Assembly (NCBI GenBank): GCA_021324075.1
Contig: JAJPJW010000025.1
Span: 43,306 to 107,305, forward strand
Source: Pseudomonadota bacterium
GTDB taxonomy: Bacteria > Oederibacteriota > Muellerivitia > Muellerivitales > Muellerivitaceae
Direction: 5' to 3'
Length of the DNA: 64,000 bases
In this document: positions 25,571-43,228 of the stretch, piece after piece
How the letters are laid out: every line of letters begins with the position of its first letter
Numbering within the stretch: position 1 is the stretch's first letter
Position numbers and translations under genes: made by a program
The notes under the pieces: model-generated
What the model was told of the DNA's origin: nothing
Databases searched by the model: none
What the model saw: the letters and a program-made list of their open reading frames with translations, nothing else

Positions 25571-25595
25571 TTCAAAATCCTTAAGGAGAAAAAAT

Positions 25596-26914: not shown

Positions 26915-26997
26915 CCATTCCGTCCCTTTAGGATGGCTGGATTTTAACAGTCCGCCCATTCCGGAAGGGATAAAAGTCCCGCCGGATCAAGGAAAAG

Positions 26998-28173
26998 TCA
27001 CGCCCGGGCCGCGCCCCGGGACCGCCACCGATCCCAGGCCCCGCGGATCAGTCGGTTGGCGGGCCATTCGAAGAAACGGTAGGAAAGGGAAGCCACCAGG
27101 GTGGTGAGAAGGACCAAGAGGGCGAAGCCGCCGAGGAGGCCCAGGCTTCCTAAAAGGGGCCGGCTGATGAAAAGCACAAGGGGGTGGAGCAGGTAACAGC
27201 CGTAGCAGTACCTGCCGGGGTAAGCCAGGGCCTTCAGCCAGGGTGATTCCCAGAAGGAAAGGGAGAGGCCGCCCATCAGGAAAAGGAAGAGCCCCCCGGC
27301 CAGGACTTCGGGGACGAAAATTTCCTGCAGGGGGTCGTTCTCGCGGGTCCCGAAATAGGCCGACAGGAGGACCAGGGCCCCCGCAAGACAAAGGAGAACG
27401 GCGGTTTTTTTCTTCCGCAAAAGAGAGGGGCCGTAGCGCCGGAAAGCCAGATAAAGCGCGATACCGCAGGCGATCAAGTCGAATTTGGCTGGGGAAGCGT
27501 AGGATTCCACGAAGTCGTTGGAGCCCCTGTGGAAATAAAAATAAGACCTCCAGGCCAATCCGGCCAAAACGACCAGGGCCAAAACCACCCGGAAATTCCG
27601 GGTGTTCCGGATCTTTCCCAGGGCCCAGGGATAAAGCAGGTAAAACTGTTCCTCGATAGCCAGGCTCCAGAGGATCATCCAAGGGACCGAATAGTTCCAA
27701 TCAGGCCGGAAGACCAGAAGCCAGTTGAAGAGGAAGGTGGATGCGCAAAACCAGAACCAGCCATCGTGGTTGCCGCCGGGGGTGAAGAATTGCCGGTAGA
27801 GCGCCGAGGCGGGCGGGGCGAGGAAAAAAACGGCGATTCCCCAGGCGAGGCAAAGCAGGAAAAGGGGCCAGATACGGCCGATGCGGCGCAGGTAAAAGCG
27901 GGGAAGGTCGGGCTTGAAAAGGCCGCCCGCGTCGCGCGCAAGGACGTGGGTGATGAGGAAGCCCGAGACCATGAAAAAAAGGAAGACCCCGTAGAAGCCG
28001 TTGACGCAAAACCGGCCCCAGAGCCAGGCTTTCCAGGGGCTGTCGAAGGGGACGTTGGAGTAATAATGGACGCCCATGACGGCGATCACGCAGGCGCCGC
28101 GCACCAGGTCGATGACCTGCCAAGTGGGGGGAGCAGCCGAATTTTTGCGGGTACTGGAAGGACGGGTGGTCAA
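26998..28173 (-). CDS. Acyltransferase family 3 membrane protein embedded in the hpn operon
   Basis: VIDLVRGACVIAVMGVHYY and FFMVSGFLITH motifs. Probable TTG start at 28173 overlapping the hpnC stop (TTGA). The track ORF extends to 28227. Confidence 0.6.
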   Translation of the reverse strand: MTTRPSSTRKNSAAPPTWQVIDLVRGACVIAVMGVHYYSNVPFDSPWKAWLWGRFCVNGFYGVFLFFMVSGFLITHVLARDAGGLFKPDLPRFYLRRIGRIWPLFLLCLAWGIAVFFLAPPASALYRQFFTPGGNHDGWFWFCASTFLFNWLLVFRPDWNYSVPWMILWSLAIEEQFYLLYPWALGKIRNTRNFRVVLALVVLAGLAWRSYFYFHRGSNDFVESYASPAKFDLIACGIALYLAFRRYGPSLLRKKKTAVLLCLAGALVLLSAYFGTRENDPLQEIFVPEVLAGGLFLFLMGGLSLSFWESPWLKALAYPGRYCYGCYLLHPLVLFISRPLLGSLGLLGGFALLVLLTTLVASLSYRFFEWPANRLIRGAWDRWRSRGAARA

Positions 28174-29042
28174 GAGCCCTTCCCCGGGGGCAGCAAGGCG
28201 GCCAAGAAGACCTGGAACTTGTCCCAAACCCCCAAATGGGGGCGTTGCTCCAGGACCTGGTAGTCCATCCCGCGGATTTTCCCCAGGATCCGGGAACCTC
28301 CCCGGCAGGTGGCTTTCAGCTCCAACTTGAGGCGCCCGGTCACCGCGTCCAAAAGGGGCAGGCCTTTCCGAAAGTAACCTTCGGTGAAATCCACCGCGCT
28401 CCGAACCATCCGGCGCACCGGGGGGGAATCCTGCAAGGCCAACAGGCCTTTCGCCCCCACCCCCGCTTTTTTCAATTCGGCCAGGGGGTAGTAAATCCGG
28501 CCGCGTTTCAAATCGATGGAACTGTCCTGCCAGAAGTTGATGAGCTGCAGGCCGCTGCAGATGAAATCCGAATACCGGTGGAGCTTTTCGTCCCGGATGC
28601 CCGAGATGAGCAGGACCATCCGGCCCACGGGGTTGGCGCTATGGCGGCAATAGTAAAGAAGGGCGTTCCAGGTGGAATAGCGGTGGTTCACCACATCCAT
28701 ACGGTAGGCGCGCAGGAGGTCCAGCGGGAGGGAAAGGGGGATTTGGAAGGTCCGGACCGTATGGGCGAAGGCCATGAGGGCCGCGGGGGCTTTTTTGCCT
28801 TTGAGGGCGTCTTTCAGGCCCCTTTCCCATCGGGCGATCTCCTTAAGCCGCCGGCCCTCATATTTTTCCTCGTCGGCGAAGTCGTCGGCGGTGCGGGCAT
28901 AGGCATAGAGGGCCGCCACATGGGGGCGGGAGACCTTGGGCAGGAGCAGGGAGGCCACCGGAAAATTCTCGTAGTGGCCGAAGGCCTGCCTTTGGCAGTC
29001 CTCATAGGCTTTTTCCAGGTGGGACGGGATGGAGACATCCAT
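28170..29042 (-). CDS. hpnC: Hydroxysqualene synthase (squalene synthase HpnC)
   Basis: HYENFPVASLLLP...ALYAYARTADDFADE is the N-terminal trans-isoprenyl diphosphate synthase head-to-head motif. First gene of the hpnC-D-E set. Confidence 0.7.
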   Translation of the reverse strand: MDVSIPSHLEKAYEDCQRQAFGHYENFPVASLLLPKVSRPHVAALYAYARTADDFADEEKYEGRRLKEIARWERGLKDALKGKKAPAALMAFAHTVRTFQIPLSLPLDLLRAYRMDVVNHRYSTWNALLYYCRHSANPVGRMVLLISGIRDEKLHRYSDFICSGLQLINFWQDSSIDLKRGRIYYPLAELKKAGVGAKGLLALQDSPPVRRMVRSAVDFTEGYFRKGLPLLDAVTGRLKLELKATCRGGSRILGKIRGMDYQVLEQRPHLGVWDKFQVFLAALLPPGKGS

Positions 29043-29174: not shown

Positions 29175-29861
29175 TTAGCGACCGCTGCCCAGCACTTCAC
29201 TAGCGGTCTGTGGGCCTTGCCTTAGGAAATTGTAAAGGAGCGCCGCGGCCACGGCGCCCAAGACCGGGCCCAGGGTGTAAATCCACATTTCCCCCAATTG
29301 TCCCTGGAACAGGGCGGGGGCCAGGGACCGGGCGGGGTTCATGGAGGCCCCGGTGACGGGCCCGCCCACGAAGGCCGCCAGCATGACCGTGCCGCCGATG
29401 GCGGCCCCCGCCATGGTGCCCTCGGCCCGGGTGTCGGTGGCCACCGCCATGATGACGAACATGAGGAAGAAGGTCAGGACCCCTTCCCAGGCCAGGGCCT
29501 GCGGGGGATGCACCGAGGAGAAGGTGGTCCCGTAGGCCCGGCCGGAGGGAAGGAGTAGAACCAAAAGCCCGCTGGCCGCGACGGCGCCGGAGAATTGGGC
29601 CAACCAATAAAAGGGGATCTGCCGCAGGGGGAAATGCCTTCCCACCGCGAAGGCCAGGGTGACGGCGGGGTTGAAATGGGCGCCGGAAATATGGCCCACC
29701 GCGTAAATCATGACGGCCACCGCCAGCCCGAAAACCACCGGGACGGCCGCAGGGGGGACGGAACCGGGGAACCGGTCCGCCACCATGACGGCCCCGCAGC
29801 CCGCGAAGACCAGGGTGAAGGTGCCCACCGCCTCGGCGATGGATTTTTTCAGGAGGGTCAC
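29175..29861 (-). CDS. MIP-family aquaglyceroporin (probable arsenite channel, AqpS-like)
   Basis: Two NPA boxes (HFNPAVT and SMNPARS). Six TM helices. Immediately downstream of arsC. Confidence 0.8.
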   Translation of the reverse strand: MTLLKKSIAEAVGTFTLVFAGCGAVMVADRFPGSVPPAAVPVVFGLAVAVMIYAVGHISGAHFNPAVTLAFAVGRHFPLRQIPFYWLAQFSGAVAASGLLVLLLPSGRAYGTTFSSVHPPQALAWEGVLTFFLMFVIMAVATDTRAEGTMAGAAIGGTVMLAAFVGGPVTGASMNPARSLAPALFQGQLGEMWIYTLGPVLGAVAAALLYNFLRQGPQTASEVLGSGR

Positions 29862-30280
29862 GGTTGGATTCCCTCCAGCGCGGCCCTCTTGAATTTCTCC
29901 TGGATCATGTCCCGGACCCTGCGGAACTCCTTCAGGAATTCCTCATTGGGTTCCTCGGTCTGGGGCGGGTCGGGGAAGGACCAGTGCAGGCGGTGCTTGG
30001 CGCCGGGGAAGACCGGGCAGGTTTCGTTGGCGTTGTCGCAAACCGTGATGACGTAGTCGAAAGGCTGGCCCAGGAACAGGTCCAGGCCCTTGGAAGCCTG
30101 GCCGGAAATGTCGATGCCGACCTCCTCCATGACCCGCACGGCGTTGGCATTGACGTGGGAAGCCACGGTGCCGGCGCTGAAAACCTCGAACTTGCCGGAA
30201 CCGTAGTGACGGAGGAAGCCTTCGGCCATTTGGGACCGGCAGGAGTTCTTGGTGCAGAGGATGAGGACGCGTTGTTTCAT
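29858..30280 (-). CDS. arsC: Arsenate reductase, LMW-PTP / thioredoxin-coupled type
   Basis: ILCTKNSCRSQMAEG P-loop. 141 aa from the internal Met. ATGA start-stop overlap with the upstream regulator and a 4-nt overlap with the aquaporin gene. Confidence 0.8.
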   Translation of the reverse strand: MKQRVLILCTKNSCRSQMAEGFLRHYGSGKFEVFSAGTVASHVNANAVRVMEEVGIDISGQASKGLDLFLGQPFDYVITVCDNANETCPVFPGAKHRLHWSFPDPPQTEEPNEEFLKEFRRVRDMIQEKFKRAALEGIQP

Positions 30281-30663
30281 TTTTTCCTTCCGGGCTTTTT
30301 CACCCAGCCGCCCAGGGTTTCCTTCAAACGGCTTTTCATGCCTTCCAATTCCCCGATTTTGGACTCCAATTCCCTGACCTTCCGGCTGAAGAGGTCCTTG
30401 GTCAGGTCGCAGCAGGGCCCCAGGCCTTTTTCCCCGCAAAAGGTGATCGTGTGGATCTCCTTGAGGGTCAATCCCATGGCCTGGGCCTTTTGGATGAACC
30501 GGAGCCGTTCCACCGTTTCGGCGGGGTAGAGCCGGAACCCCCCGGCCGTCCGAGCCGGCTTTTTCAACAGGCCTATTTGTTCGTAATAGCGGATGGTATG
30601 GATGGAGGCCCCGCTTTTTTTTGAAACCTGGCCTATTTGAAGTGCCTGACCCTTGGGCTCCAT
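30277..30663 (-). CDS. MerR-family metal-responsive transcriptional regulator with C-terminal Cys motif
   Basis: HTH IGQVSKKSGASIHTIRYYEQIGLL. Cys residues CGEKGLGPCC in the effector region. GGGAGG RBS. Confidence 0.7.
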   Translation of the reverse strand: MEPKGQALQIGQVSKKSGASIHTIRYYEQIGLLKKPARTAGGFRLYPAETVERLRFIQKAQAMGLTLKEIHTITFCGEKGLGPCCDLTKDLFSRKVRELESKIGELEGMKSRLKETLGGWVKKPGRKK

Positions 30664-30988: not shown

Positions 30989-32038
30989 TCAGGGCGCGGC
31001 CAAGTCGAATTTTTGGACGCGGTGGTTTTCAGCGTCCACCACGAAGACGGAGCCGCCGGGGCCGAAGGCCAAGGCGGTGGGCCGGTTGAACTGCCCCTTT
31101 TGGTTTCCCGAATCGCCCCACTGCCCCTCGAACCCCAGGTCCGGCCCGAAAACCTGGATGCGGTTGTTGCCGTCGTCGGCCACGAAGAGGTTGTCCTGGG
31201 CATCGAACTTCAAGCCCTGGGGATGTTCGAACTGCCCGGGCGAGGAGCCCCTTTCCCCGAGCACCGAGAGGAACTGGCCGGCCCCATCGAACCGTTCGAT
31301 CCGGTTGTTGTTGAAGTCGGAGACGAAGACCTCGCCGGCCTTGTTGACGTCGATGCCCACCGGCCAATTGAACTGCCCGTCGCGCCCGCCCAGGCTTCCC
31401 CATTGAAGGAGATAATTCCCGCCCGTGTCGAACTTCTCAATCCGGTGGTTCCACTGGTCCGTCACGTAGACCCCGTCCCCGTGGATGGCGATGTCGTGGG
31501 GCTTGTTAAACTGGCCGTCGCCCTGGCCCGGAGTGCCCCATTGCGAAAGGAAAGCCCCAGAGGGATCGAACTTCTGGACCCTGGAATTGCCCGAATCCAC
31601 CACGTAAATGGCGCCGTCCCCGCCCACGGCAATGCCCAGGGGGGTGTTGAACTGGCCGCTTTGGTCGCCACAGGTCCCGAAGGAAAACTGGAATGATCCC
31701 CAGGAATCGAATTTTTGGACCCGGCAATTATGCCAGTCGGTGACCAGGGGAAATCCCTTGGCGTCCACGGCGACACCGATGGGCTCGCGGAACTGGCCAT
31801 TGTCCCCGCCCTCGCCGCCCCAGGAACTTTCAAACCGGCAGCTGACGGAAGCCGGCTTGGAGGAAGGCCTGGAACCTGAGAAACGGCCGGCCTTCGCGAA
31901 GAAAAAATAATAGGCGCCAAAGCCCAGGAGAAAAACGGCCAGGAAGAGGATGAGGACATTCATGAAGGTGAGGTCGATTTTGGGGGGGGAAGGGGGTTGG
32001 GGATCTAATTCCGGCATAGGGGTCCTCCTTATATACAT
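30989..32038 (-). CDS. NHL-repeat (6-bladed beta-propeller) protein with N-terminal membrane anchor
   Basis: Repeated xYVxDxxNxRIxKF units (VYVTDQWNHRIEKFD, VFVSDFNNNRIERFD, LFVADDGNNRIQVFG, VFVVDAENHRVQKFD). Confidence 0.75.
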   Translation of the reverse strand: MYIRRTPMPELDPQPPSPPKIDLTFMNVLILFLAVFLLGFGAYYFFFAKAGRFSGSRPSSKPASVSCRFESSWGGEGGDNGQFREPIGVAVDAKGFPLVTDWHNCRVQKFDSWGSFQFSFGTCGDQSGQFNTPLGIAVGGDGAIYVVDSGNSRVQKFDPSGAFLSQWGTPGQGDGQFNKPHDIAIHGDGVYVTDQWNHRIEKFDTGGNYLLQWGSLGGRDGQFNWPVGIDVNKAGEVFVSDFNNNRIERFDGAGQFLSVLGERGSSPGQFEHPQGLKFDAQDNLFVADDGNNRIQVFGPDLGFEGQWGDSGNQKGQFNRPTALAFGPGGSVFVVDAENHRVQKFDLAAP

Positions 32039-32121
32039 TCCGGCCGAAGGCTTTATAAGGCCTTATCTTAACAAACCCCTCCGGGCGTATTTTCTTTAAT
32101 TTTCGGATTCCTTGATTTCAT

Positions 32122-33243
32122 TTGGTATTCTTCTTCAACATGACCCTTTCCAAATCCTTTTTACGGGGCGCCTGCTTTTCCTTCTTCGGGCTCCTCCTGC
32201 TGGCCGAAATCCTCCTGCGGCTTACCGTTCCCACGGGCTTTTGGTACCGCCATTTCGACTTTTCCGGCGATATGACCAGCCTGGCCGAACTGAGGGACCG
32301 GATCCATTACGCCGTCCCCGGGGACCACCACATCCTGCTTTTGGGGGACAGCGTGCTGGGCGCCAGTTCCCTCATCGAACATCGAATCCCTGGCGCAAAA
32401 CAAAAAACCCTATCTTTTTTTTTACAAGGAGACATCCGGGAAGAAGATAAAAAAGACCCCTATGCGGGTCCCCGCCAAACTTTAAGCGTCCTCAGCCTTG
32501 GTTCGGATGGGCTGCTGCTAACCGATATCCAAGGCTTAAACGCGGAGTTGCCTTCCTCATCTCCAACTAAGATCCTCCTCCTTTTAAATTTCCGGATGTT
32601 TTCCAAGGATTTCGCCGACGGCCCCAAGGCCCTCTCCCGGCATTTTCTTTTAACCGACCTGCCCGAAGACATCCAAAAAAGGCTGGCGCCGGACAAGGCC
32701 CCTTCCGCCGAAACCCAGTTGAGCGACCGGGTCTATGCCGGGATGTGCGACCATTGGTTTCTTTTCCGGGAAACCCAGATGGCCAAGACCCTTTGGTATT
32801 ACCCCAGCCAGGCCGATTTCTTCCAGCGCCGACTGGAGCAGGTGCTGCCCCCCAATGAAACCCTCGCCGAGATCACCGAAGCCAGCCTGAAACAAAAGGT
32901 GGCTCCCTACTACCAAGCCTATCTTTGGGACCCCAGGGCCCTGCCCCTGACCTGCCTGAAGGGGATATTGAACCAATGGGCGGGCCGGCATCTTCAAGTC
33001 ATGGTGGTACTCACGCCCCAGAACCAGAAATACCTGGGGAGTTACCTGGACAAGCCCAGCTTTGAGAAGAACCGGAAAGCCTTGGCGGCCTTCATGAAGC
33101 CCTATAGGAAGCAGGGAATCACCTACCAGGATTGGGCGGACCGATATCCTTCCTCCGCCTTCCTGGACCATTGTCATTTGACGCCCGAGGGGAACCAGCT
33201 CTATGCAAAGGATTTAGCCATTGCCTGTATTGGGTGGGATTGA
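32122..33243 (+). CDS. SGNH/GDSL-family hydrolase/acyltransferase-like protein with N-terminal TM anchor
   Basis: Block I LLLGDSVLGAS and C-terminal block V DHCHLTPEGN. Divergent from the NHL gene; upstream of the MBOAT gene. Confidence 0.55.
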   Translation: MVFFFNMTLSKSFLRGACFSFFGLLLLAEILLRLTVPTGFWYRHFDFSGDMTSLAELRDRIHYAVPGDHHILLLGDSVLGASSLIEHRIPGAKQKTLSFFLQGDIREEDKKDPYAGPRQTLSVLSLGSDGLLLTDIQGLNAELPSSSPTKILLLLNFRMFSKDFADGPKALSRHFLLTDLPEDIQKRLAPDKAPSAETQLSDRVYAGMCDHWFLFRETQMAKTLWYYPSQADFFQRRLEQVLPPNETLAEITEASLKQKVAPYYQAYLWDPRALPLTCLKGILNQWAGRHLQVMVVLTPQNQKYLGSYLDKPSFEKNRKALAAFMKPYRKQGITYQDWADRYPSSAFLDHCHLTPEGNQLYAKDLAIACIGWD

Positions 33244-33450
33244 ATGAAAAACAAAAAATCCAGGGAACAACTGGTCCCGCCAACGCCTTTTCCACCCTTG
33301 AGTTACGGGGGCGAGAAACGGTTTTTCCACCGGTCGGACCCATTCTGGAAGGGCTTTGGGTTGGGGGTCCTCCTCTTTGCCCTTTTCCTGGCGATCCTGC
33401 TTTTTTCGGGGGATCTGTCAGCCTCCAAATTCATCTATGTGGATTTTTAA
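33244..33450 (+). CDS. Small single-pass membrane protein (68 aa), start overlapping the upstream stop (TGAATG)
   Basis: One C-terminal TM helix GLGVLLFALFLAILLF. Tight coupling to the SGNH gene; precedes the MBOAT gene. Confidence 0.35.
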   Translation: MKNKKSREQLVPPTPFPPLSYGGEKRFFHRSDPFWKGFGLGVLLFALFLAILLFSGDLSASKFIYVDF

Positions 33451-33518
33451 GGGCAGTCCACCGTTCGCAGTCGGCAGTCCGCAGTTAAGGCAGAAACTGA
33501 AACCTAAGAGGCTTCCTT

Positions 33519-34736
33519 TTGATTTTTAATACAAGTTGGTTCCTCCTCTTTTTTCTCCTCTTTTACTTCTTCCTCTGGCTCATGCCCAACGCCAAGGTCC
33601 GCTTTTTCTACACGCTCATTTGCAGCGCCATCTTCCATTACCACTTCGCCGGGCCCGCGGGGGTGATGCCGATCATCCTGATGGCCATCCTCACTTTTTT
33701 CATGGCCCTTTGGGTGGCCCGCTGCCCGCAGGGGAGCCCCCGGAAAAAATGGGTCTACGGCGTTTCCCTGTTAGTGCCCGTCTTCGGGCTGGTGTTCTAC
33801 AAATACCGCGCCCTTTTGCTGGGGTCCCTGGGGCCCTTCCTGGGCGGGGCGGCGGGCGGGTGGATGACCGCCAATGCGGTCCAACCCGCCATGCCGCTGG
33901 CCATTTCCTTTTTCACCTTCGAGTTCGTGCATTACCTGACCGACGTCTACCACGGCCACGGACAGCCGGTGAAGAACCCCTTCAAGTTCGCCTTGTTCTG
34001 CATTTTTTTCCCCTCCATCGTGTCCGGGCCCATCAAGCGGTTCCAGCCCTTCCTGGCCCAGTTGGAGCAGGGGTTGGAAAGGCCGGCGGCCTCCCAAGCC
34101 CTCTTGGGGCTCGCCCAAGTCTTGCTGGGGTTCTTCAAGAAGCTGGTCATCGCCGACAACGCCACCCTGGCCATCCACCTGCTGGAAAAGCGCAATGACC
34201 TGACCTCCGGGCCGGTCTGCCTCCTGTTGGCGCTGCTTTCCATCCGCATCCTCTTCGATTTCAGCGGCTATTCGGACATCGCCATCGGCCTGGGCAAGAT
34301 GATCGGCCTGGACCTTCCCGTGAACTTCAACTTCCCCTATGTCGCCCGCAACATCACCGATTTCTGGCGCCGGTGGCACATGTCCCTGAGCAGCTGGATC
34401 CGGGACTACATCTATATCCCCCTCGGGGGAAACCGGCACGGCCCCTTGCGGAAGTTCCTCAACCTCATGGTGACCATGTTCGTCTGCGGGCTTTGGCACG
34501 GGGCCAGCTGGCACTTCGGCCTTTGGGGCATGTACCATGGGGCGGCCCTGGCGGCGCACAACGCCTGGGGAAAATCCCGGGTGGGCCAAAGATGGGCTTC
34601 CTGGCCTTTCAGCCGCTGGGTCGACATCGGGGTGACCAATGTTTTCGTGGCCTATGGCTGGCTTTTGTTCTTTTACCCGGTGGACCAAGTGGTGAAATTC
34701 ACGAAATTCCTTTTTTCGATCCGAGGTGGAATGTGA
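33519..34736 (+). CDS. MBOAT-family membrane-bound O-acyltransferase (AlgI/DltB/PatA-like)
   Basis: Signature WRRWHMSLSSWIRDYIYIPLGGNRHG with the conserved His; ~10 TM helices. Confidence 0.85.
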   Translation: MIFNTSWFLLFFLLFYFFLWLMPNAKVRFFYTLICSAIFHYHFAGPAGVMPIILMAILTFFMALWVARCPQGSPRKKWVYGVSLLVPVFGLVFYKYRALLLGSLGPFLGGAAGGWMTANAVQPAMPLAISFFTFEFVHYLTDVYHGHGQPVKNPFKFALFCIFFPSIVSGPIKRFQPFLAQLEQGLERPAASQALLGLAQVLLGFFKKLVIADNATLAIHLLEKRNDLTSGPVCLLLALLSIRILFDFSGYSDIAIGLGKMIGLDLPVNFNFPYVARNITDFWRRWHMSLSSWIRDYIYIPLGGNRHGPLRKFLNLMVTMFVCGLWHGASWHFGLWGMYHGAALAAHNAWGKSRVGQRWASWPFSRWVDIGVTNVFVAYGWLLFFYPVDQVVKFTKFLFSIRGGM

Positions 34737-36778
34737 GCCGGGGGATAAAAGCTTTTGGGCCCGCCTTGTTTTCGAGGCTCCACCTGGGATGGCTGTTCCT
34801 CTTCTTTTCCGCCGCCCCGGCCTTCAGCCTGACGCCCATGGAATGGTTCAACAGCCTGGTGGCGGGGTCGGACGACCCTGGGTTCCGTGACGGCCCTTTT
34901 TACCGGGCCCAGTTCGACCACCCCGCGGGCCTGGCCCTGGACGCCGCCGGCGGGCGGCTCTTCGTGGCGGATGCCAACAACCACCGGATCCGGGTTGTCT
35001 ATTTAAACGAGCAAAACCGGGTGGAAACCCTGGCCGGTACGGGCCAACCGTTGGAGACGGACGGTCCCCTGGAAAAGGCTTCCTTCGGCATGCCCACGGC
35101 CCTGGCCTGGATTCCGCCGGACCGGCTGGCGGTGTATGACGACGGCAGCCGCCGGTTGAGGATGGTGGACCTGGGCAAGAAGGCCGTTACGACCCTGGGG
35201 GTGGACAACAAGGGGCAAGCGGTCACGGTGGGCGCCCTCTGGAGCCTGGTTTACCGGGCCCAGGACGACAGCCTTTATTTTTCCCTTCCGGCCGCCCATT
35301 CCATCCAAAAGTTGGATTTAAAGACCCAAACCTTCTCGACGCTTTTGGCCAATGAGGAACGCCTTCCCGCCCCGAAGGCCCTCTGTGCGGTCGGCAACAA
35401 GCTTTACGCGGCGGACCAGGATGGTTCGGCCATCTACGAGGTCGGATTGGATACCGCGGCCCAGCAGCCCCCGCTGGCCAAGGTCGGGAAGGGCCGTCAG
35501 GTCCTGGCCCTGGCGGAATCCAACGGCCTGCTCTATGCGCTCCAGGCCGGGGATGAGCCCTTGGCCCAGGTGGCCCCCGCTTACCGGCCCGTCAGCCTGG
35601 CAACCGCCTGGGGCCTCCTGCTGGAGAACCAAAACCCCGGGGCGCCCCCCTTTTTCCAGCTCAACGCCTTCCAACAGGCGGGCCTGGCGTCCTCCCCCCT
35701 GGAGCCGGGGAAACTTTTCATTGCGGGGCATGGGGTGAACCAGATCGTCAGCGTCAAGGACTACCATTTCGATACGACTTGGGGCGCCAGGTCCGTCACC
35801 GAAATGGGGGTGTTGTCCGATTTCACCTATCCGGAGGCCAAGCCCCCCAAAACCTTCCGGATCCTGGTGGTCGGGAATTCCCGGGCCATCACCGCCCCCG
35901 TCCTTGTTCCCGGAGCGGGGGAGAAGGGGTCCCGGGTGGACGCCGGCGCCCAGGGGGAGCTTTCCCTGAGGACGAACACCTTCCCCAAGCAGCTCGAGTT
36001 CCTCCTCAACGAGAAGGCCTCGCTGGAGGGGGTGGACCGGCATTTTGAGGTCCTGACGCTGGCCCATCCGGGACAGCCCACCCATTTTTTCGCCTATTAC
36101 GAGGTACCGGTCATCGCCCGCAAATACGACGCCGACCTGGTTTTCATCCTCGTTTCCCCCTTGAAGGAGCAGGACTACGCCGAATATTTCCTGCGGCCCC
36201 TGACCCCCGAGGGGATTCCCTCCCCCACCATCGACCCGGAATTTTTGCTGAAGCCCTTTTCGAAGCGCATTCCGGACGGGGCTCCCCGGCGATTTTTCGA
36301 GCATTGCCGCCAACAAGGCCTCATCCAGGTCCAAGATTCGGGGGCGGTCGGTTTCCCCTTCTTCGACGGCCTCCTGCGGGCCGCGGACCGGGAGACCCGG
36401 GACGGCTTGATTGAATTAACCGGCAGGCCCCTGGGGCTTTTGGCCCGGAAGATGGAAGGGACGAAGAACGCCGGGGGCGCGGCCGTGAAGTTTTTCCTTT
36501 GCTATACGCCGGCCTTTGACAACGGTTCGGCCCCCCTCGCGGACTATGAATCGTTCTGGGTGGACCTCTGCGCCCGGGAAAAAATCGACCTTTTGGATTT
36601 AACCGACCCCTATACGGCCCTGGAGACCAGCTTTTATCCCGCCAGCGAGGCCTGCTGCCACAACCATTACACGGCCTATGGGAACTATCTCATTGCCACG
36701 CTGTTGAGCTATTATTTACCCGAAAAAAAATGGATCCCTTTCGAACCGGCCCAAAACCGGGGTGAAAGGACCCCCTAA
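34733..36778 (+). CDS. Secreted NHL beta-propeller plus SGNH/AlgX-like domain protein (paralog 1; catalytic motifs degenerate)
   Basis: GTG start overlapping the MBOAT stop (GTGA), followed by a signal peptide. NHL units (LFVADANNHRIRVV). C-terminal domain FRILVVGNSRA (GNS in place of GDS) and YGNYL where the paralog has DGH. The track's longer N-terminal extension is rejected. Confidence 0.5.
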   Translation: MSRGIKAFGPALFSRLHLGWLFLFFSAAPAFSLTPMEWFNSLVAGSDDPGFRDGPFYRAQFDHPAGLALDAAGGRLFVADANNHRIRVVYLNEQNRVETLAGTGQPLETDGPLEKASFGMPTALAWIPPDRLAVYDDGSRRLRMVDLGKKAVTTLGVDNKGQAVTVGALWSLVYRAQDDSLYFSLPAAHSIQKLDLKTQTFSTLLANEERLPAPKALCAVGNKLYAADQDGSAIYEVGLDTAAQQPPLAKVGKGRQVLALAESNGLLYALQAGDEPLAQVAPAYRPVSLATAWGLLLENQNPGAPPFFQLNAFQQAGLASSPLEPGKLFIAGHGVNQIVSVKDYHFDTTWGARSVTEMGVLSDFTYPEAKPPKTFRILVVGNSRAITAPVLVPGAGEKGSRVDAGAQGELSLRTNTFPKQLEFLLNEKASLEGVDRHFEVLTLAHPGQPTHFFAYYEVPVIARKYDADLVFILVSPLKEQDYAEYFLRPLTPEGIPSPTIDPEFLLKPFSKRIPDGAPRRFFEHCRQQGLIQVQDSGAVGFPFFDGLLRAADRETRDGLIELTGRPLGLLARKMEGTKNAGGAAVKFFLCYTPAFDNGSAPLADYESFWVDLCAREKIDLLDLTDPYTALETSFYPASEACCHNHYTAYGNYLIATLLSYYLPEKKWIPFEPAQNRGERTP

Positions 36779-36789
36779 GGGAAGCCCCT

Positions 36790-37302
36790 ATGAAAAAAAA
36801 TATCTTTCTGTTGATGCTGTTCTGCGCCGGAACGCTTCGGGCCCAGGGGACGGACCCGACCCCCGGGGCCTCCCATTACACCACCCCGACCCCCGTCGTG
36901 ATCCAAAAGTGGAGCATGTCCGCCATCCCATGGGACAACTGGTTCAAGTCCAACCCTTACAACATCACCGTCACCGACAAGACCGACTATGTCCATTTCA
37001 TGTGGAACGCCTGGGACTTTAAGGCCGCCTTCGAAGTGAAGGACAAAAAACCGCGGCTCTCCCAATCCGTGCTCCAACTGGTTTTGCGGCTTTACCCTCC
37101 GGACGCCAAGGCCGACCTGGTGAAAGTGGATGTGGTCTACGCCCCGGAGGATGAATACTACGGCACGCCCCATTGGGACAGCCTCCAACAGGTCGCCCAT
37201 TTCGAGTTCCTCAAATCCAAGGCCTTGAAGGCCTTCAAGGGGAAAAAGGACCCACCTCCCGCGGCCCTCCAAAAGGCCTTCGACCAGGCGGTGTTCTATT
37301 GA
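36790..37302 (+). CDS. Secreted hypothetical protein (signal peptide, 170 aa)
   Basis: MKKNIFLLMLFCAGTLRAQG signal peptide. Stop overlaps the next gene's ATG by 1 nt. Confidence 0.45.
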   Translation: MKKNIFLLMLFCAGTLRAQGTDPTPGASHYTTPTPVVIQKWSMSAIPWDNWFKSNPYNITVTDKTDYVHFMWNAWDFKAAFEVKDKKPRLSQSVLQLVLRLYPPDAKADLVKVDVVYAPEDEYYGTPHWDSLQQVAHFEFLKSKALKAFKGKKDPPPAALQKAFDQAVFY

Positions 37303-39272
37303 TGAAAGGATTCCTACTATTTCTTTTTTGCTGCCTGTTGCCGCCCAGAACTTGGGCACTCCTTCCCCTGCAAACCTACGAGGACCTGGCGGCGGGGAGC
37401 CCGGCCATGGGTTACCAAGACGGGCCCTTTTATGCGGCCCTTTTTCACGGGCCCCAAGGGCTGGCTTTTAATACCGATGGAACCCTGCTCTACGTCGCCG
37501 ACGGGGAGAACCATTGCATCCGGGTGGTGGACCGGGGCAAGGGCAACCTGGTTTCGACCCTCACCGGCGGCGGAAAAGCGGGCTATGCGGACGGCCCCCT
37601 CGCCGCCGCCCTTTTCAGCCATCCCACCCTCCTGCTTTTCCTGCCCGGCCAGCAGCTCGTCGTTTATGACGAAGGCAATGCCCGGCTGCGGTTGGTCGAC
37701 CTCGCCCAAAAGACCGTGACGACCCTGGCGGGGGACGGCGAGCCGGGATTGAGCGACGGCCCGGGTGCCAAGGCCTCCCTGGGGAACCTCTCGGGCATGG
37801 CTTATCTTCCTTCCCGCGGGGGGGTCTATTTTTCCAGCTTCGGGGCGCTTCGGAAGGTCGACTTTAAAACAGGACAGGTTTCCACGGTTTTCCGCGGCAA
37901 GGCCGAAGTGCCAGCACTTGGGGCCATGACAGTGGACCAGGGCCGGCTTTACCTGGCGGATGGGACATCGGGGCAGGTGTACCAGCTGACACCCAAGGAA
38001 AAATTCGACCGGGAAGATGAAACTTCCTTCGATTGGCAGCCTTTTGCCAAGGGCCAGGCCATCGGCCAAATGGCCTTCTCCGACGGCGTCCTTTACGCCG
38101 TACAGCGCGGCGGCGCCCCCTTCCTGGCGCGGTTGACGCCCCAATACCAGCCTGTCACCTTCGTTTCCCTATGGGGGGACGAGCAGTCCCAAAGCGTCGG
38201 TTCCAACCCCCTGCTGGGGGGCGAGGGGGAGGGAAACCCCTGTTTCCTTGCGCCCGACCCCCTGTCGCCCCGCAAACTCTATTTCTCCCATCCGGGCGCC
38301 AACATGGTCACCTCCTACCGCGATCTTTTCCTGGAGGAGTTCAAGGATTCGGAATCGGAGAACCCGGAGGGATTGACGGATTTCCGTTATCCCACCGCCA
38401 AGCCTCCGGGAACCTTCCGTATCCTGTTGGTCGGGGATTCCCACACCTTCCACCAATATCCCGACGACGTCAAAAAGAGGGGTTGGAACGCCTTCAACCG
38501 GTTCGCCATCCTTCCCAAAAGGGCGGAGGAAACCCTCAACACCTTGGCGGCCCTGCAGGATGTCCCTTGGCATTACGAAGTCCTGCATTACGGGGAAGTT
38601 TCAGGAAATCACCTGAACCTCTGGCCCTATTACGTCGTGCCGAGGCTCGCAAAGAAATTCGATGTGGACCTGGTGGTCATCATGTATTCACCCGATTTCG
38701 ACCTGGGCCCCTTCTATGATTACCCCTATTCGGCCGAGGGCATTCCGGTGGAAAAGCAGGACAACGAGTTTTTGCTCAAACCAGTCGAACAGCGCATCCA
38801 GGGGGGACTGCCCCGCGAACTCTTCGACTATTGCAAGGCCCACGAGCTTGTCAAGGTCATCAATCACCAGGCCCAATTCGCCCCCTTTGACAGGATCTCC
38901 GGGGACCCCCAGGCCGCGGAGAAATTGATCCAGTTGACCGCGCGGCCCCTGAAGTTATTGGACGAGAAATTAAACGGGATGAAAACCAGCACCGGGGCAC
39001 CCGTCCGGCTGGAAATGGTCCGCTTCCCCTTGGGCCGATTTCCAGGTCCCTATGAAGGAGACCAGGCTTATTGGGGGAAATATATGAAAGAGATCAACGC
39101 GCCCCTGTTGGATTTGACTGCCGCCATGAGCATATTGCGGTTCAGCTATTACCCCCTTTCCCAAGTGGGGGGCTACGACCACTTCAACGCGGACGGGCAT
39201 CTGTTGATGGGTTTCCTGCTGGCGGAAGAGCTGATCCGTGAAAAGCTCATTCCTTTTGAACCGGCAAAATAA
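37302..39272 (+). CDS. Secreted NHL beta-propeller plus SGNH/AlgX-like O-acyltransferase/esterase candidate (paralog 2; motifs intact)
   Basis: Signal peptide MKGFLLFLFCCLL. NHL units (LYVADGENHCIRVV). C-terminal FRILLVGDSHT (GDSH block I) and YDHFNADGHLL (D-x-H). Ends LIPFEPAK, like paralog 1. Confidence 0.6.
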   Translation: MKGFLLFLFCCLLPPRTWALLPLQTYEDLAAGSPAMGYQDGPFYAALFHGPQGLAFNTDGTLLYVADGENHCIRVVDRGKGNLVSTLTGGGKAGYADGPLAAALFSHPTLLLFLPGQQLVVYDEGNARLRLVDLAQKTVTTLAGDGEPGLSDGPGAKASLGNLSGMAYLPSRGGVYFSSFGALRKVDFKTGQVSTVFRGKAEVPALGAMTVDQGRLYLADGTSGQVYQLTPKEKFDREDETSFDWQPFAKGQAIGQMAFSDGVLYAVQRGGAPFLARLTPQYQPVTFVSLWGDEQSQSVGSNPLLGGEGEGNPCFLAPDPLSPRKLYFSHPGANMVTSYRDLFLEEFKDSESENPEGLTDFRYPTAKPPGTFRILLVGDSHTFHQYPDDVKKRGWNAFNRFAILPKRAEETLNTLAALQDVPWHYEVLHYGEVSGNHLNLWPYYVVPRLAKKFDVDLVVIMYSPDFDLGPFYDYPYSAEGIPVEKQDNEFLLKPVEQRIQGGLPRELFDYCKAHELVKVINHQAQFAPFDRISGDPQAAEKLIQLTARPLKLLDEKLNGMKTSTGAPVRLEMVRFPLGRFPGPYEGDQAYWGKYMKEINAPLLDLTAAMSILRFSYYPLSQVGGYDHFNADGHLLMGFLLAEELIREKLIPFEPAK

Positions 39273-39533
39273 CGCCACTGTTCCACTCTTGAACCGAATA
39301 GGACGGTGACCTCCCCGGGGATGGGGATGGTCCTGAGTCTCCCTGTTCGCGACAAAATAGGAACTCATAAATATCTTTAATGTTAAATTTGCGGATTTCC
39401 TTTTGGAATAAGGCCAATTTGCCCCTTTTTTCCTTTGGGAAACCGGTATCCCTCTCTATAGAATCCATTCCACCGGTAGGGTGCTTTTAAGGATGTTGGA
39501 ACAGCCCGCCTATTTTGTCCAAGGAGTTTAGCC

Positions 39534-40727
39534 ATGAAATTCAAAATCCCGGGTATCGCCCTTCTCCTCGTCACTTCCATTCTTTTTGTCATCAGCTGTT
39601 CGAGCAATAACAACAATCCCTCCGCACCCGCCGCCCCCACGCCGACCTTTACGCCCCCCTGCGTGAACGCCAGCAACACCCCCTGCACCTCGACCTTCAC
39701 CGCCACGCCGACCAATACGGGGACCGCCACCCCGACCGGTACGCCGACCAGCACGGCAACCGTTACCGACACCCGCACTCCCACGGCCACAACCACCAAT
39801 ACGGGGACTTCGACGTCGACGGCCACCATTACCAATACTGCCACACTGACTGCGACGGCCACCATTACGGACACGCCCACCGTGACCCCGACCGCAACCA
39901 TCACCAGCACGCCCACCGACACCCCGCTGGTCACTTCGACGGCCACTTCGACAGCGAGCAGCACCCCCAGCAACACGCCGACTTCCACCAGCACGAATTG
40001 CACGGGGAACCCGACTCCTACGAACACGGTCGTGGCTTCCAACGGGATCGCCATGCATGTGACTTATAGCGGTGTCGGAACGGTCAGTGCCAGCAACCCC
40101 ATTTACGTCTATCTTACGGATACCTTTGGAAGCGGCGCCTCTTTCCAGGCGGTGCGGTTCATTGATACCAACAGCGGCGGAATCACCATTTACGGCATGA
40201 ACACCGGAACCTATTACCTGGCGATGTTCTATAACGCCGCGGGCGACGGGCATTTTTACCAAGGCGGGGGCGGCGTCAAGCCCCATGTGGGGGACCAGGC
40301 CCAGTTCCTCGGCGTTTCCAGCGGCTGCAACCCCTCCGGCGCCACGGCCCTCAGCGTGGCCGGCGGCGTTACCAACATTGGAACCGTGAGCTTCACGGGC
40401 GGCGGCCTTTGGGGCTTCGGAGGAACCTTGACCTACAATGGAAGCGTGGGAGGAACGGTGAGCACTTGCAATCCGCTCTGCGTGGGCTTCTATACGGACA
40501 GCGGCTATACCGCCCAAGACACCAACCAGCTTAATTTCACCAATGGCTCCCGCTATGACCTGAACACTTTCGACATCGGAGGCGGGTGCAGCACTGCCAG
40601 CGCCTATGTCCAAGCCTGGTACGCCAAGAGCGGCAATACGGGAAGCCCCCAAGCCGGCGATTCCGTGACCCAATTGGGATTGGTGGCTAACTCCGCCGTT
40701 ACGAACCTCAACATCACCATTCCTTAA
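39534..40727 (+). CDS. Lipoprotein with long Thr/Pro-rich linker and C-terminal beta-rich domain
   Basis: Lipobox-like FVISC after a signal peptide. ~120 aa of (T/P/A/S)-rich low complexity encoded by ACC/ACG-rich DNA at 39650-40010. Confidence 0.5.
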
Positions 40728-40899
40728 TCCATCAACCGTCGAACTGTTTTAAAAGCCCGGGTCAGAGACCTGGGCTTTTTTATTTTTGGCCTTCAGAACG
40801 GTTGAAGCGTAACCCATTAAAACCTAACAAATAATAAACATTTCCCTTGGTTAAACGGATATAATTCGTCCAACTAATCGGGTATCCCCAGGAGGATTT

Positions 40900-41706
40900 A
40901 TGAAAAAGTCTTCAACTGTGATTTCGGTTTTGGCCGCAACGGCTTTCTTAATGGCCAATGCCAAGACCCTGGCGGATGATTCAACGCCTTCGGCCTCCTC
41001 GACACCTTCCTCCAAATCCACCAAGTCTAAAAAGAAGAAATCCTCCGCGACTCCCACTCCCCAGGTGACCGTCGTTGCTACGACTCCGGCCGCTCCCTCA
41101 ACGACCCCCACCCCCTTGCCCAAGGCCACTGCCACCCCCACTCCCGCTCCGGCGGCTTCCGCCGCTCCGTCGCTTTTCTCCGGTAATGCCCGGCTTTACG
41201 ACCGCGTGGGCGCTCCGGGGGACTTACAAAAGGCCGTCTCCACCGCGGCCCGCGTCATCGGTTCGGGTTCCTCGAAACACGACCGGTCGGTTTTCCTGTG
41301 GCTGGGAAGGGTGACGAACGGCAGTGACTACCAAAAAGATAATTCCTACATCCGGTTCAACCTGGAAGGCGTGGCCTTTGCCGGTCCCAAGAAGCCGTCC
41401 CTGGTCCTGACGGGCACGGTCTTCGACCAGTCGGGAAGCAACTGCAAATCCGGCGACCCCATTTCGGTGGCCGTGGATTTCCGCCAGATCCGGGTGGACT
41501 ACGAAGGCACCAAATTGGGCGAGGTGAACAAGGGCAACGACATCGCCGACCAAGTGTTCGCCATCCTCAACGATCGTGCCGCCTACCAATGGGTGGTGAT
41601 CGCCCAGGACCAAGTCAGTGACGCCCAGGAATCCATGGGAGTACCGACCTTCGTGGTCAAGGCCCAGGAAGGCTACGCTTTCCTCTCCAGTACCTCCAAC
41701 CACTGA
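40900..41706 (+). CDS. Secreted protein with Lys/Ser/Thr/Pro-rich N-terminal linker; hypothetical
   Basis: Signal peptide MKKSSTVISVLAATAFLMANA; PT-rich region; globular C-terminal domain. Confidence 0.45.
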   Translation: MKKSSTVISVLAATAFLMANAKTLADDSTPSASSTPSSKSTKSKKKKSSATPTPQVTVVATTPAAPSTTPTPLPKATATPTPAPAASAAPSLFSGNARLYDRVGAPGDLQKAVSTAARVIGSGSSKHDRSVFLWLGRVTNGSDYQKDNSYIRFNLEGVAFAGPKKPSLVLTGTVFDQSGSNCKSGDPISVAVDFRQIRVDYEGTKLGEVNKGNDIADQVFAILNDRAAYQWVVIAQDQVSDAQESMGVPTFVVKAQEGYAFLSSTSNH

Positions 41707-41707
41707 G

Positions 41708-43228
41708 ATGGACATGAAAAAAGACCTTTTTAAACTCCTGCGCCAAGGGGCCGTATTGGTGCTCCTGGCCTGCCCGGCTTGGGCCTCGGCCCTGGGGCTT
41801 CCTTTTGGCTCCCCGCCCCTGGTCATCGAGGCCAAGGGCATGGGCAATGCGGTGGTGGCGGACGGCAGCTTGTTCAACGCCACCGCCTATAACCCCGCCC
41901 TGCTTGAAAGCATGAGCGACTTCGGGGAAGTGCACCTGGAACTCAACTTGGGCAACGATCCGCTCGGCATCATCGATTATTTGACCAACCATTACAACAT
42001 CCAGAACCTACAAGATGCGGTCAGCAATGTTCGCCCAGCTTTCAACCAAATCAATGACGCCCTCAACCTTTCCAACCATGGCGGTTCGGTGGACGTCAAT
42101 GAATACAACCAGGGTGTAGACGGCCTTCAAAACGCCGTCACCAACATCCAGACGGCCATTTCAAAATTGACCAACAAAACCCTCCAGGTCGGCGCGGGCC
42201 TTCAACTGGCTTTCAAGATCGACGACAATTGGGGTTTCCAGGCTTACAACACGTCCCAAGCGGCTTTTTATGTGGGCCGTGGGAATCTGATCCCGTCCCT
42301 GCTGGCGCTTCTATCGCTTCCTAAAATGCAAGGTTCCAGCAACACCCAGATCCAAGCGGCTGCGGTTTCGATGTACAACAATACTTCTTCGGTTGTGAAC
42401 GCCTTCTTAACCCCTTCCCAACAACAGCAATTGAACGCCGCCGTAACAACGTTCCAGGGAAAATCCTCGCCCACCAATACAGACGTCCAGAATTTCACCA
42501 ACAGCGTCAATAGCGTGCTGTCCAGTATCGATACCCAGACTTCCCAGCAAGCCCTTTTCGACGACATCGCCCCGATCACGGCGTTGGTTTATTCCGATAC
42601 GGTCCTGATGGCCACTTATTGCACGAGGCCCTTGGAGAGTGATGGGAATCTCACAACCGGGATCAACGTCAAGGCGGTCAACCGGCGGATCGCTTCCGTC
42701 AATTCGCCCTTCCTGGCCACGCAAAACACCAGCAAGTTCTCGGATATCGGGGATGATCTCAAGAACGATATCGAGCAATCCACCTGGCGCTGGGGGGTGG
42801 ACCTGGGCTTCCTCTACAACTTCGACGACCCCAAGGTGGCGGTGGGAGCTTCGGCTACCGACCTGATCCATTCGACGGCCACACTGAACACGAACCCCAG
42901 CGACCCCCTTTATGGGTTGGTCACCGATTCGGCGCCCACGGTGTTGCGGATTGGGGCTTCTTACAAGCCCATGCCGGAGCTGACCGTGAACGCGGACATC
43001 GACGACCTATTCGGTAATACCTCTTATTACCAGGGCCTGGACGCTTTTTCCCACGTCGATTTCGGCTTCAACTACAACCTATTGGGAATCCTGCAGCTGC
43101 GGGGCGGCGTGACCAACGACAACCTCTGCGGCGGGCTCGGTCTTCCCTTCGGAATCCAATACGCCTTCGCGGTCGACAACCTCACCCAAAGCTATAACCA
43201 TTACCTGCAGTTCGACGTGGCCTTCTAA
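41708..43228 (+). CDS. Outer-membrane beta-barrel protein candidate (TraF/FadL-like fold?)
   Basis: Signal peptide. N-terminal AKGMGNAVVADG...YNPAL motif. C-terminal alternating strands ending in YLQFDVAF with a terminal Phe. The track ORF starts at 41618; ATG chosen just after the upstream stop. Confidence 0.45.
   Translation: MDMKKDLFKLLRQGAVLVLLACPAWASALGLPFGSPPLVIEAKGMGNAVVADGSLFNATAYNPALLESMSDFGEVHLELNLGNDPLGIIDYLTNHYNIQNLQDAVSNVRPAFNQINDALNLSNHGGSVDVNEYNQGVDGLQNAVTNIQTAISKLTNKTLQVGAGLQLAFKIDDNWGFQAYNTSQAAFYVGRGNLIPSLLALLSLPKMQGSSNTQIQAAAVSMYNNTSSVVNAFLTPSQQQQLNAAVTTFQGKSSPTNTDVQNFTNSVNSVLSSIDTQTSQQALFDDIAPITALVYSDTVLMATYCTRPLESDGNLTTGINVKAVNRRIASVNSPFLATQNTSKFSDIGDDLKNDIEQSTWRWGVDLGFLYNFDDPKVAVGASATDLIHSTATLNTNPSDPLYGLVTDSAPTVLRIGASYKPMPELTVNADIDDLFGNTSYYQGLDAFSHVDFGFNYNLLGILQLRGGVTNDNLCGGLGLPFGIQYAFAVDNLTQSYNHYLQFDVAF

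Follow-up and report, generated by a model that had tools for sequence, protein, structure and literature searches.

The locus at positions 30989-39272 of the window (the whole 64,000-nucleotide stretch of DNA analysed here) raises the question of how an MBOAT, SGNH-like proteins and NHL propellers encoded side by side might act together, and what part a 68-aa membrane peptide encoded among them would play. The answer we consider most likely is an operon of an uncultured bacterium of the candidate phylum FCPU426 that places acyl groups onto a cell-envelope molecule, with the separate 68-aa peptide serving as acyl carrier. All seven genes listed for this interval in an earlier note (A-G; Table 1) were found where that note had placed them, and they are tightly coupled: the start ATG of C directly follows the stop TGA of B, the D and E genes overlap in GTGA (a coupling that the note had also reported), and F and G overlap in TGATG, each junction being read directly in the sequence. 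The true start of B may be the ATG at 32140, because its homologues are 356-357 aa long.

Table 1. Features of the acylation locus, in positions of the window.
Feature	Start	End	Strand	Length	Description
A	30989	32038	-	349 aa	Divergently transcribed; N-terminal TM helix; TM-anchored canonical six-repeat NHL protein (Pfam NHL, 7e-47)
B	32122	33243	+	373 aa	Proposed membrane-anchored DltD-like SGNH acyltransferase
C	33244	33450	+	68 aa	Single TM helix; proposed DltX-like acyl-shuttle microprotein (from the translation)
FIYVDF hexapeptide codons of C	33430	33447	+		Read in the sequence; motif definition from PMC12148441
Proposed acyl-accepting Tyr codon of C	33436	33438	+		TAT
D	33519	34736	+	405 aa	Short MBOAT (Pfam MBOAT, 1.5e-25)
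E	34733	36778	+	681 aa	Secreted; NHL propeller fused to SGNH-like domain
NHL propeller of E	34850	35758	+		Residues ~40-342; six blades, NHL fold
SGNH-like domain of E	35840	36727	+		Residues ~370-665
F	36790	37302	+	170 aa	Signal peptide; small secreted core protein
G	37302	39272	+	656 aa	Second NHL::SGNH-like paralogue
H	39534	40727	+		Lipoprotein with Thr/Pro-rich linker
Terminator 3' of H	40751	40779			13-bp stem; terminator scan

As judged from its sequence, C would be the key mechanistic part of the locus, bearing a DltX-type FxYxxF tyrosine acyl-shuttle motif. It has one TM helix, a cytoplasmic N-terminus and a 13-residue outside tail (GDLSASKFIYVDF) ending in SKFIYVDF, of which FIYVDF fits FxYxxF at the extreme C-terminus, just outside the TM helix. 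In DltX and PatA, this motif has been shown biochemically to carry acyl-Tyr (PMC12148441). Both the topology of C and its FIYxxF tail match DltX of Bacillus thuringiensis, and the tails are closely similar (...TSTFIYNEF in the latter; PMC5541007), although C has no family match in Pfam up to an E-value of 10, the DltX family included. Across ~30 loci of FCPU426 and Acidobacteriota the tail is nearly invariant, with only conservative variation ((S/G)(K/R/G)F(I/L)Y(V/A)DF followed by the stop codon), and in these loci of two phyla the C homologue always lies immediately 5' of a ~400-aa MBOAT. The earlier note had recorded the single-TM peptide and its tight coupling, both of which hold, but missed its weight, which lies in the acyl-shuttle motif.

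The partners of C carry further hallmarks of the MBOAT-SGNH tyrosine-shuttle class, three features of which are present: the catalytic His of the MBOAT in D, the FxYxxF end in C, and Ser-His-Asp in B. D ends in ...SIRGGM without an FxYxxF of its own, and contains conserved His287 (RWHMSLS) and His327 (LWHG), both aligned to DltB motifs. B, for which 121 homologues were found, is an anchored DltD-type SGNH protein with an N-terminal TM helix (residues 11-38), and G75-D76-S77, G130, N156 and D349-x-x-H352 are invariant across 51 homologues; on the basis of these motifs, Ser77, Asp349 and His352 are proposed as putative catalytic residues, with Gly130 and Asn156 forming a putative oxyanion hole. 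DltD is the top structural match of B in a fold search, in which GDSL enzymes also match, and B has no match in Pfam or NCBIfam. The fold of B confirms its earlier description as SGNH hydrolase-like. The view of the locus as an MBOAT-SGNH system for envelope acylation is likewise supported.

The closest parallel is DltB-DltX-DltD, the extracytoplasmic half of teichoic acid D-alanylation in Firmicutes, in which a ~400-aa MBOAT likewise lacks its own shuttle motif, as D does, and DltX, like C, is a separate single-TM microprotein with an outside tail of ~13-15 residues ending in FIYxxF. This raises the alternative of true Dlt-type D-alanylation in a diderm, with D as DltB, C as DltX, B as DltD, DltA and DltC encoded elsewhere, and an anionic envelope polymer or lipid as acceptor. 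Apart from the present case, a division into a short MBOAT and a microprotein with a FIYxxF tail is reported for Dlt alone (PMC12148441), the solved structure closest to D is DltB (8jem, 6bug; 1e-28), and DltD heads the structural matches of B. Nevertheless, we regard D-alanylation as improbable. No genes for AMP-binding (DltA) or carrier (DltC, PP-binding) proteins occur in the neighbouring genes scanned or in five annotated related loci, and tblastn of the window and of 41 loci with approximate ACP and DltC sequences as queries gave no convincing match, although the genome may encode a carrier protein at another place. With the NCBIfam DltB equivalog TIGR04091, D reaches 187 bits where the cut-off is 375, and MBOATs with a fused shuttle motif score level with it (156-187 bits), so the resemblance of D to DltB is generic; no part of the locus matches the DltX or DltD families of Pfam. 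Moreover, the nearest systems with homologues of B, E and F have fused-motif MBOATs, a type that uses acetyl-CoA in PatA (PMC12148441). The locus also differs from Dlt in its gene order (SGNH, microprotein, MBOAT), in its extra parts (F and the NHL::SGNH proteins), and in its host, which belongs to an uncultured candidate phylum that we infer to be diderm, whereas Dlt hosts are teichoic-acid-bearing Gram-positives.

Relatives of the fused type, themselves uncharacterised, link the parts of the locus to one another. In Myxococcota (including Nannocystaceae) and Planctomycetota, an MBOAT of ~470 aa, 33-39% identical to D, ends in FIYFQF and in most loci directly adjoins one protein of ~1100 aa (range ~1000-1300 aa). 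From N- to C-terminus, this giant protein has an SGNH domain that resembles B (hhalign probability 99.8), an NHL segment like that of E (98.8), a segment resembling the C-terminal domain of E (P 1e-3; z 8-11 vs shuffles), and a C-terminal F-like segment (P 6e-4; z 11.5). Because B-, E- and F-like segments are joined in one polypeptide, B, E and F are tied to a single machine. Compared with the FCPU426 locus the parts are homologous and in the same order, but one protein unites B, E and F, and the MBOAT itself bears the shuttle motif, such that the FCPU426 locus represents the fully split form. The separation of C from the MBOAT is probably an independent fission, because in the relatives with B, E and F counterparts the MBOAT bears the motif itself. 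Hitherto only the Dlt pathway was described as using a separate microprotein as tyrosine acyl shuttle, with other MBOATs carrying the motif fused to their own C-terminus (PMC12148441); the locus is a counter-example, with a DltX-like microprotein in FCPU426 and Acidobacteriota without linked DltA or DltC. Given that the same machine occurs in split form here and in fused form in Myxococcota and Planctomycetota, the split state is not tied to carrier-protein donors.

E and G are NHL propellers fused to SGNH-like domains, as the earlier note had proposed; both begin with a six-bladed propeller of four strands per blade, which in E has an NHL fold, and for the SGNH-like character of the C-terminal domains the support comes from sequence motifs, the predicted order of strands and helices, and an alignment of profiles. 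For E, ~75 homologues of full length were found, with E-values as low as 1e-278. Ser383 is kept in 67 of 67 sequences, within the block I motif VG(N/D)S, and His645 of block V in 65 of 67; these two are proposed as putative catalytic residues. Three residues before the His, where Asp would be canonical, E has C642, and in many members the arrangement is DH. G is 36% identical to E and has the motifs VGDSH and YDHF. We consider it very unlikely that the NHL::SGNH-like genes simply adjoin the MBOAT module and encode a C-terminal alpha/beta domain without catalytic function. Such a reading would fit the lack of a Pfam or PDB sequence match for this domain, a local hhalign score against B that is not above that of motif-retaining block shuffles, and two fold searches of the full-length model that were swamped by the propeller. 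Against it stand the conservation of Ser383 and His645, a global colinear alignment to B (z 8.2) that places Ser on Ser and His on His, an AF2 strand/helix order that is the same as that of B, the occurrence of NHL::SGNH genes beside the module in ~2/3 of loci, in two phyla and at varying positions, and the fusion of the parts in Myxococcota.

The label 'AlgX-like', which had been attached to these proteins, is unsupported: B, E and G have no match to the ALGX family of Pfam, and their Ser precedes the His, as in classical SGNH proteins and DltD. In the ALGX family (AlgJ, AlgX), the Asp/His motif comes before the Ser. No paper that brings together MBOAT, SGNH and NHL repeat turned up in a full-text search, in keeping with the earlier claim that the NHL::SGNH architecture is undescribed. 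The C-terminal family of E comprises ~180 clusters at an E-value of 1e-30 or better and carries no annotation.

More than 30 independent loci have this gene set, and in them the parts are co-inherited around a core of B-C-D-F, while the copy number of NHL::SGNH genes varies from 0 to 3 adjacent copies. The duplicate propeller fusions of the earlier note are thus both present in this locus but are variable accessories across loci. F had been noted only as a small secreted protein, which it is, yet it belongs to the invariant core: wherever the sequence extends far enough 3' of the MBOAT module, F almost always follows it, even if the locus has no NHL::SGNH gene. Its invariant residues are W48, W51, H69, D109, D114, Y124, G125, P127, W129, H137 and E139, and it has no match in Pfam or PDB and no detectable similarity to AlgF or anything else. 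In about one third of the informative loci, NHL::SGNH genes are missing next to the module (L015, L016, L017, L019, L020, L022 and L043); from this, E and G are non-obligatory neighbours that might function at another place or in the opposite direction.

Another reading takes B-C-D, with or without F, as the complete acyltransferase, with E and G as esterases by which the modification would be removed or edited, or as enzymes for another substrate. Ape1, an SGNH esterase encoded beside the transferases PatAB, is a precedent. Several loci have the B-C-D-F core without adjacent E or G; in L003 and L007, E is a decayed remnant of 114 aa beside an intact core; and E diverges much faster than its neighbours (identity to L001 of 43% for E, compared with 81% for D and 68% for B). 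Conversely, the E gene is GTGA-coupled to the MBOAT gene, and the giant proteins join an E-like propeller and an E-C-terminal-like domain to a B-like domain, which fits a relay better, while still being compatible with an antagonist. On balance, we judge a role as esterases to be rather unlikely and favour one as transferases in a relay.

This relay would move an acyl group, most likely the acetyl of acetyl-CoA, from the cytoplasm to the outer side of the inner membrane, where an envelope molecule would receive it as an ester, a proposal to which we give somewhat better than even credence. We infer its chemical steps, the identity of the donor, the order of B before E and G, the role of F and the nature of the acceptor as follows. 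The conserved His residues of D would pass the acyl group from a cytoplasmic thioester to the Tyr of the FIYVDF tail of C, located at the outer face of the membrane, and C would then swing the acyl-Tyr over to Ser77 of membrane-anchored B. From there the acyl group would reach the acceptor either directly from B or, as we favour, through secreted E and G, with the propeller holding the acceptor and the Ser383/His645 site making the last transfer. F may be a small periplasmic adaptor.

With its putative acyl-Tyr and acyl-Ser intermediates, the relay would follow the same route as the PatA system, in which the acyl group passes from the MBOAT to the Tyr of FxYxxF, then to the SGNH Ser, then to the polymer, and for which the donor is acetyl-CoA (PMC12148441). 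PatA differs in bearing its motif on two extra C-terminal TM helices, and the system has neither an NHL propeller nor F. The four-part layout of the locus is shared with AlgI-AlgJ-AlgF-AlgX of Pseudomonas alginate O-acetylation, which combines an MBOAT and an anchored SGNH-like protein with a small periplasmic protein that is not an enzyme and a second, soluble SGNH-like protein that has a polymer-binding domain (PMC10641220, PMC4148444), to which D, B, F and the NHL::SGNH proteins would correspond; F is proposed as an AlgF-like adaptor. AlgX has a C-terminal CBM as its binding module, whereas in E and G this role would fall to an N-terminal NHL propeller, and AlgI, unlike D, would be of the fused-motif type according to the general statement of PMC12148441.

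Alginate synthesis or export genes are absent from the neighbouring genes scanned, and no genes for the synthesis of an acceptor are linked to the locus. We likewise detected no polymer synthase, and no partner gene of the alg, pat or dlt type, among those neighbours, in the five annotated loci related to this one or in loci of the fused type, which agrees with the earlier view that this is not a routine alginate, peptidoglycan or Dlt cluster. The module B-C-D-F, with or without NHL::SGNH proteins, is a conserved and uncharacterised system with two unannotated families (the F family and the C-terminal family of E), in which the NHL propeller is a new candidate acceptor-binding module for envelope acylation. 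Its practical impact at present is limited to enzymology and comparative genomics, since none of the FCPU426 and Acidobacteriota relatives found could be traced to a cultured host.

A more speculative and unlikely extension is a branching relay, in which one MBOAT and its shuttle microprotein would feed both an anchored DltD-like enzyme and a variable set of rapidly diverging NHL-propeller::SGNH transferases, each with a different extracytoplasmic acceptor, with fission and fusion of the shuttle motif occurring independently of, and converging on, DltX in uncultured diderm phyla. Candidate acceptors, perhaps other than a classical polysaccharide, would include glycoproteins, lipids and lipoproteins with Thr/Pro-rich linkers. 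The divergent NHL gene A is present as the earlier note had described, but it occurs at the same position in just one other locus (L011), and its association with the module is doubtful. H is possibly the last gene of the transcription unit, and among the loci compared its homologues lie 3' of the module in L003, L006 and L008 only.

The locus at 30989-39272 represents a split form, not described before, of the systems built on an MBOAT, a tyrosine shuttle and an SGNH enzyme. It combines a DltX-like microprotein (C), here outside the Dlt pathway, a DltD-like anchored enzyme (B) and a conserved small protein (F) with variable partners in which an NHL propeller is fused to an SGNH-like domain (E and G). 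All seven genes listed in the earlier note are present, and its reading of the locus as an MBOAT-SGNH acylation system is supported in part and sharpened by the DltX-like microprotein. The genes do not form a standard cluster of the alginate, peptidoglycan or Dlt kind. Full-text literature searches found no published description of such an arrangement.

Table. Genes of the split locus (positions in the window) and features of its fused counterpart (positions within loci, or residues).
Feature	Position	Strand	Description
A, NHL protein	30989-32038	-	349 aa, N-terminal TM helix, six canonical NHL repeats (Pfam 7e-47)
B, anchored SGNH protein	32122-33243	+	
C, microprotein	33244-33450	+	68 aa, one TM helix
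D, MBOAT	33519-34736	+	405 aa (Pfam 1.5e-25)
E, NHL::SGNH-like protein	34733-36778	+	
F, small secreted protein	36790-37302	+	
G, NHL::SGNH-like protein	37302-39272	+	
Fused-form loci (MBOAT, then giant protein)	L029:6345-11138, L032, L033, L034, L035, L040, L041		
Giant protein, B-like SGNH domain	residues 28-355		hhalign probability 99.8
Giant protein, E-like NHL segment	residues 377-568		hhalign probability 98.8
Giant protein, E-C-terminal-like segment	residues 717-948		hhalign P 1e-3; GxS and His aligned
Giant protein, F-like segment	residues 994-1084		hhalign P 6e-4

The gene junctions, read in the sequence, are tight: the ATG of C follows the stop codon of B without a gap, D shares GTGA with E, and F shares TGATG with G. 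The terminator scan detected a strong terminator with a 13-bp stem at 40751-40779, 3' of the lipoprotein gene H, and no strong terminator upstream of that stem. There are no Rfam elements within the locus; a tRNA gene at 43448-43521 is the sole Rfam match across the 64-kb window. H itself (39534-40727) codes for a protein with a VISC lipobox, ~130 aa of Thr/Pro-rich linker and a C-terminal domain rich in Gly, and follows the module elsewhere only in L003, L006 and L008 (handles of the form L001 denote related loci from other genomes). A 223-aa ORF on the strand opposite H (39383-40054) is a repeat artefact.

The SGNH blocks of B, the shuttle tail of C and the MBOAT motifs of D identify these three proteins as counterparts of DltD, DltX and DltB, respectively. 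In a 51-sequence alignment, B has invariant G75-D76-S77, G130, N156 and D349-x-x-H352, corresponding to the four SGNH blocks, and its AF2 model (pLDDT 92.7) includes an N-terminal TM helix; neither Pfam nor NCBIfam gives a match for B, and a profile search with its family gave no meaningful PDB match. The 13-residue tail of C, GDLSASKFIYVDF, contains the hexapeptide FIYVDF. In characterized systems, the tyrosine of this FxYxxF motif receives an acyl group from DltB (when on DltX) or from PatA (which carries the motif itself), and hands it on to the SGNH partner (PMC12148441); DltX of B. thuringiensis ends in TSTFIYNEF after a 22-residue TM helix (PMC5541007). C did not match the DltX family in a Pfam scan that admitted E-values up to 10. 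D carries the catalytic-type motifs RWH287 and LWH327G, and ends in SIRGGM immediately past the MBOAT core. Its closest solved relative is DltB (1e-28), but a specifically DltB-like identity was rejected: the NCBIfam DltB model scores D and the fused-motif MBOATs equally (156-187 bits, vs. a cut-off of 375), and the DltB resemblance is therefore generic. The microprotein in the window has a 28-residue N-terminal cytoplasmic extension (33244-33330), also present in L006 and L011; its relatives are mostly 38-44 aa long, vs. 68 aa here.

One genome per species was scanned; together with contig look-ups, this yielded 43 related loci. The nearest relatives come from MAGs assigned to candidate division FCPU426 (one of them labelled Firestonebacteria), and remoter ones belong to Acidobacteriota (Thermoanaerobaculia and Holophagales). 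All FCPU426 and Acidobacteriota loci with enough sequence keep the order B, microprotein, ~400-aa MBOAT, F, and the microprotein tail (S/G)(K/R/G)F(I/L)Y(V/A)DF* is kept even where B has only 35-42% identity. In comparison with L001, identity ranges from 85% (C) through 81% (D), 68% (B) and 56% (F) down to 43% (E). Adjacent NHL::SGNH copies number from zero to three, upstream or downstream, and about two-thirds of the informative loci have at least one; in L043, the four-gene core stands alone amid housekeeping genes. A occurs beside the module elsewhere only in L011. A profile search with the F family gave no meaningful PDB match. In L003 (12291-12635; equivalent to L007:10294-10638), a 114-aa ORF lies between the MBOAT gene and F, with the core intact; it matches only the last ~50 residues of E, and looks like an NHL::SGNH gene that has decayed. 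Two FCPU426 genomes encode, a few kb from the split module, a second MBOAT paralogue of 531 aa with the fused tail EFLYFRF* (L014:3197-4792, L019:2518-4113).

The B-like match in Planctomycetota, Nannocystaceae and other Myxococcota forms part of a protein of ~1000-1300 aa, which in most such loci directly adjoins a ~470-aa MBOAT ending in FIYFQF*. One cultivable carrier of this fused form is Nannocystis punicea (L033). The two weak matches within this giant protein, E-C-terminal-like (z 8-11) and F-like (z 11.5), exceed all 30 composition-preserving shuffles. The order of its domains is that of genes B, E and F in the window; thus, the same machine is fully split here and fully fused there, which ties E and F in function to the MBOAT module. 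The fused counterpart also points to an origin of the microprotein through fission in this family, more than to descent from DltX.

For the C-terminal domain of E and G, there is good but not decisive support for an SGNH-like identity. In E, this domain (residues ~370-665) is predicted to have five strands, the third and fourth separated by a helical insertion, in the same strand/helix order as B. Among 67 family members, Ser383, within VG(N/D)S, is present in all, Asp468 and Asn426 in 66 each, and His645 in 65. Profile-profile alignment with the B family spans 258 columns; in it, Ser383 falls opposite Ser77 and His645 opposite His352. Clear separation was obtained only with the global-mode control (real score 33.6 vs. 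3.2 +/- 3.7 for shuffles, z 8.2) and the query-shuffle control; the local hhalign match to B (P 0.0084) does not rise above motif-retaining 8-column block shuffles. The assignment stops short of decisive because the propeller dominated both fold searches with the E model; Foldseek against viral structures matched propellers only. A profile search gave no meaningful PDB match for the domain, and a word-indexed homology search with the E C-terminal profile returned just 10 fragments, all close, and no distant relative that carries an annotation. An exhaustive representative search places 541 clusters in the family at E <= 1e-3 and 180 at <= 1e-30, the best 150 matches all being close members. 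Among the matches listed, full-length members are mostly ~650-690 aa with the domain at the C-terminus, and the NHL::SGNH fusion is therefore its normal form. Faster divergence of the propeller than of the catalytic domain was rejected (mean pairwise identity of 44% for the propeller vs. 39% for the C-terminal domain).

We propose that D would take an acyl group off a cytoplasmic thioester and load it onto the tyrosine of C, from which it would pass to Ser77 of B. These two steps, modelled on the biochemically established chemistry of Dlt and PatAB, are very probable. B would then acylate either the acceptor directly or Ser383 of E and G, which would pass the group to an acceptor bound by the NHL propeller, with F as a putative adaptor; this part follows the AlgJ-AlgF-AlgX layout (PMC10641220, PMC4148444). 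A role for E and G as second-tier transferases is tentative, and we give it a little under an even chance; the main alternative would cast both proteins as Ape-like esterases.

The donor in the proposed relay would be an acyl-CoA, most likely acetyl-CoA, since the nearest relatives are MBOATs with a fused motif, as in PatA, which has been shown to use acetyl-CoA (PMC12148441). No AMP-binding ligase or carrier protein occurs among the scanned neighbouring genes or in five annotated loci, and tblastn with ACP and DltC queries gave no convincing match in the window or 41 loci. The earlier note had proposed a search for neighbouring polysaccharide synthase or export genes; the neighbourhoods of split and fused loci that were scanned or annotated contain none, and flanking genes were accordingly rejected as a pointer to the polymer. 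A hopanoid acceptor was considered on account of adjacent hpnC/D/E-like genes (two squalene/phytoene-synthase-like genes and an amine-oxidase gene, within 20914-29042), and was rejected because this synteny is confined to the close relatives L001 and L003, whereas L004, L042 and L043 have lost it. Given the lack of synthase or export genes nearby and the loss of hpn synteny in distant loci, the acceptor is left to a guess, the most economical being some envelope component of wide distribution whose synthesis genes lie elsewhere in the genome.

The hpn-like genes are interleaved with two AT3-family acyltransferase genes (22870-24054 and 26998-28227) and with a PMT_2 glycosyltransferase gene (20914-22491). 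Downstream, at 40900-43228, gene I (268 aa, secreted, Ser/Thr/Pro-rich) adjoins gene J (536 aa, a TraF_2-like putative outer-membrane protein), a pair that is duplicated in tandem in close relatives (L001:15252-19698, L003:15439-19883). Just upstream of A (29175-30439) lie coupled genes for a MIP protein of the aquaporin family and an ArsC-like low-molecular-weight phosphatase; this pair probably serves arsenic or antimony resistance and has no relation to the acylation locus.
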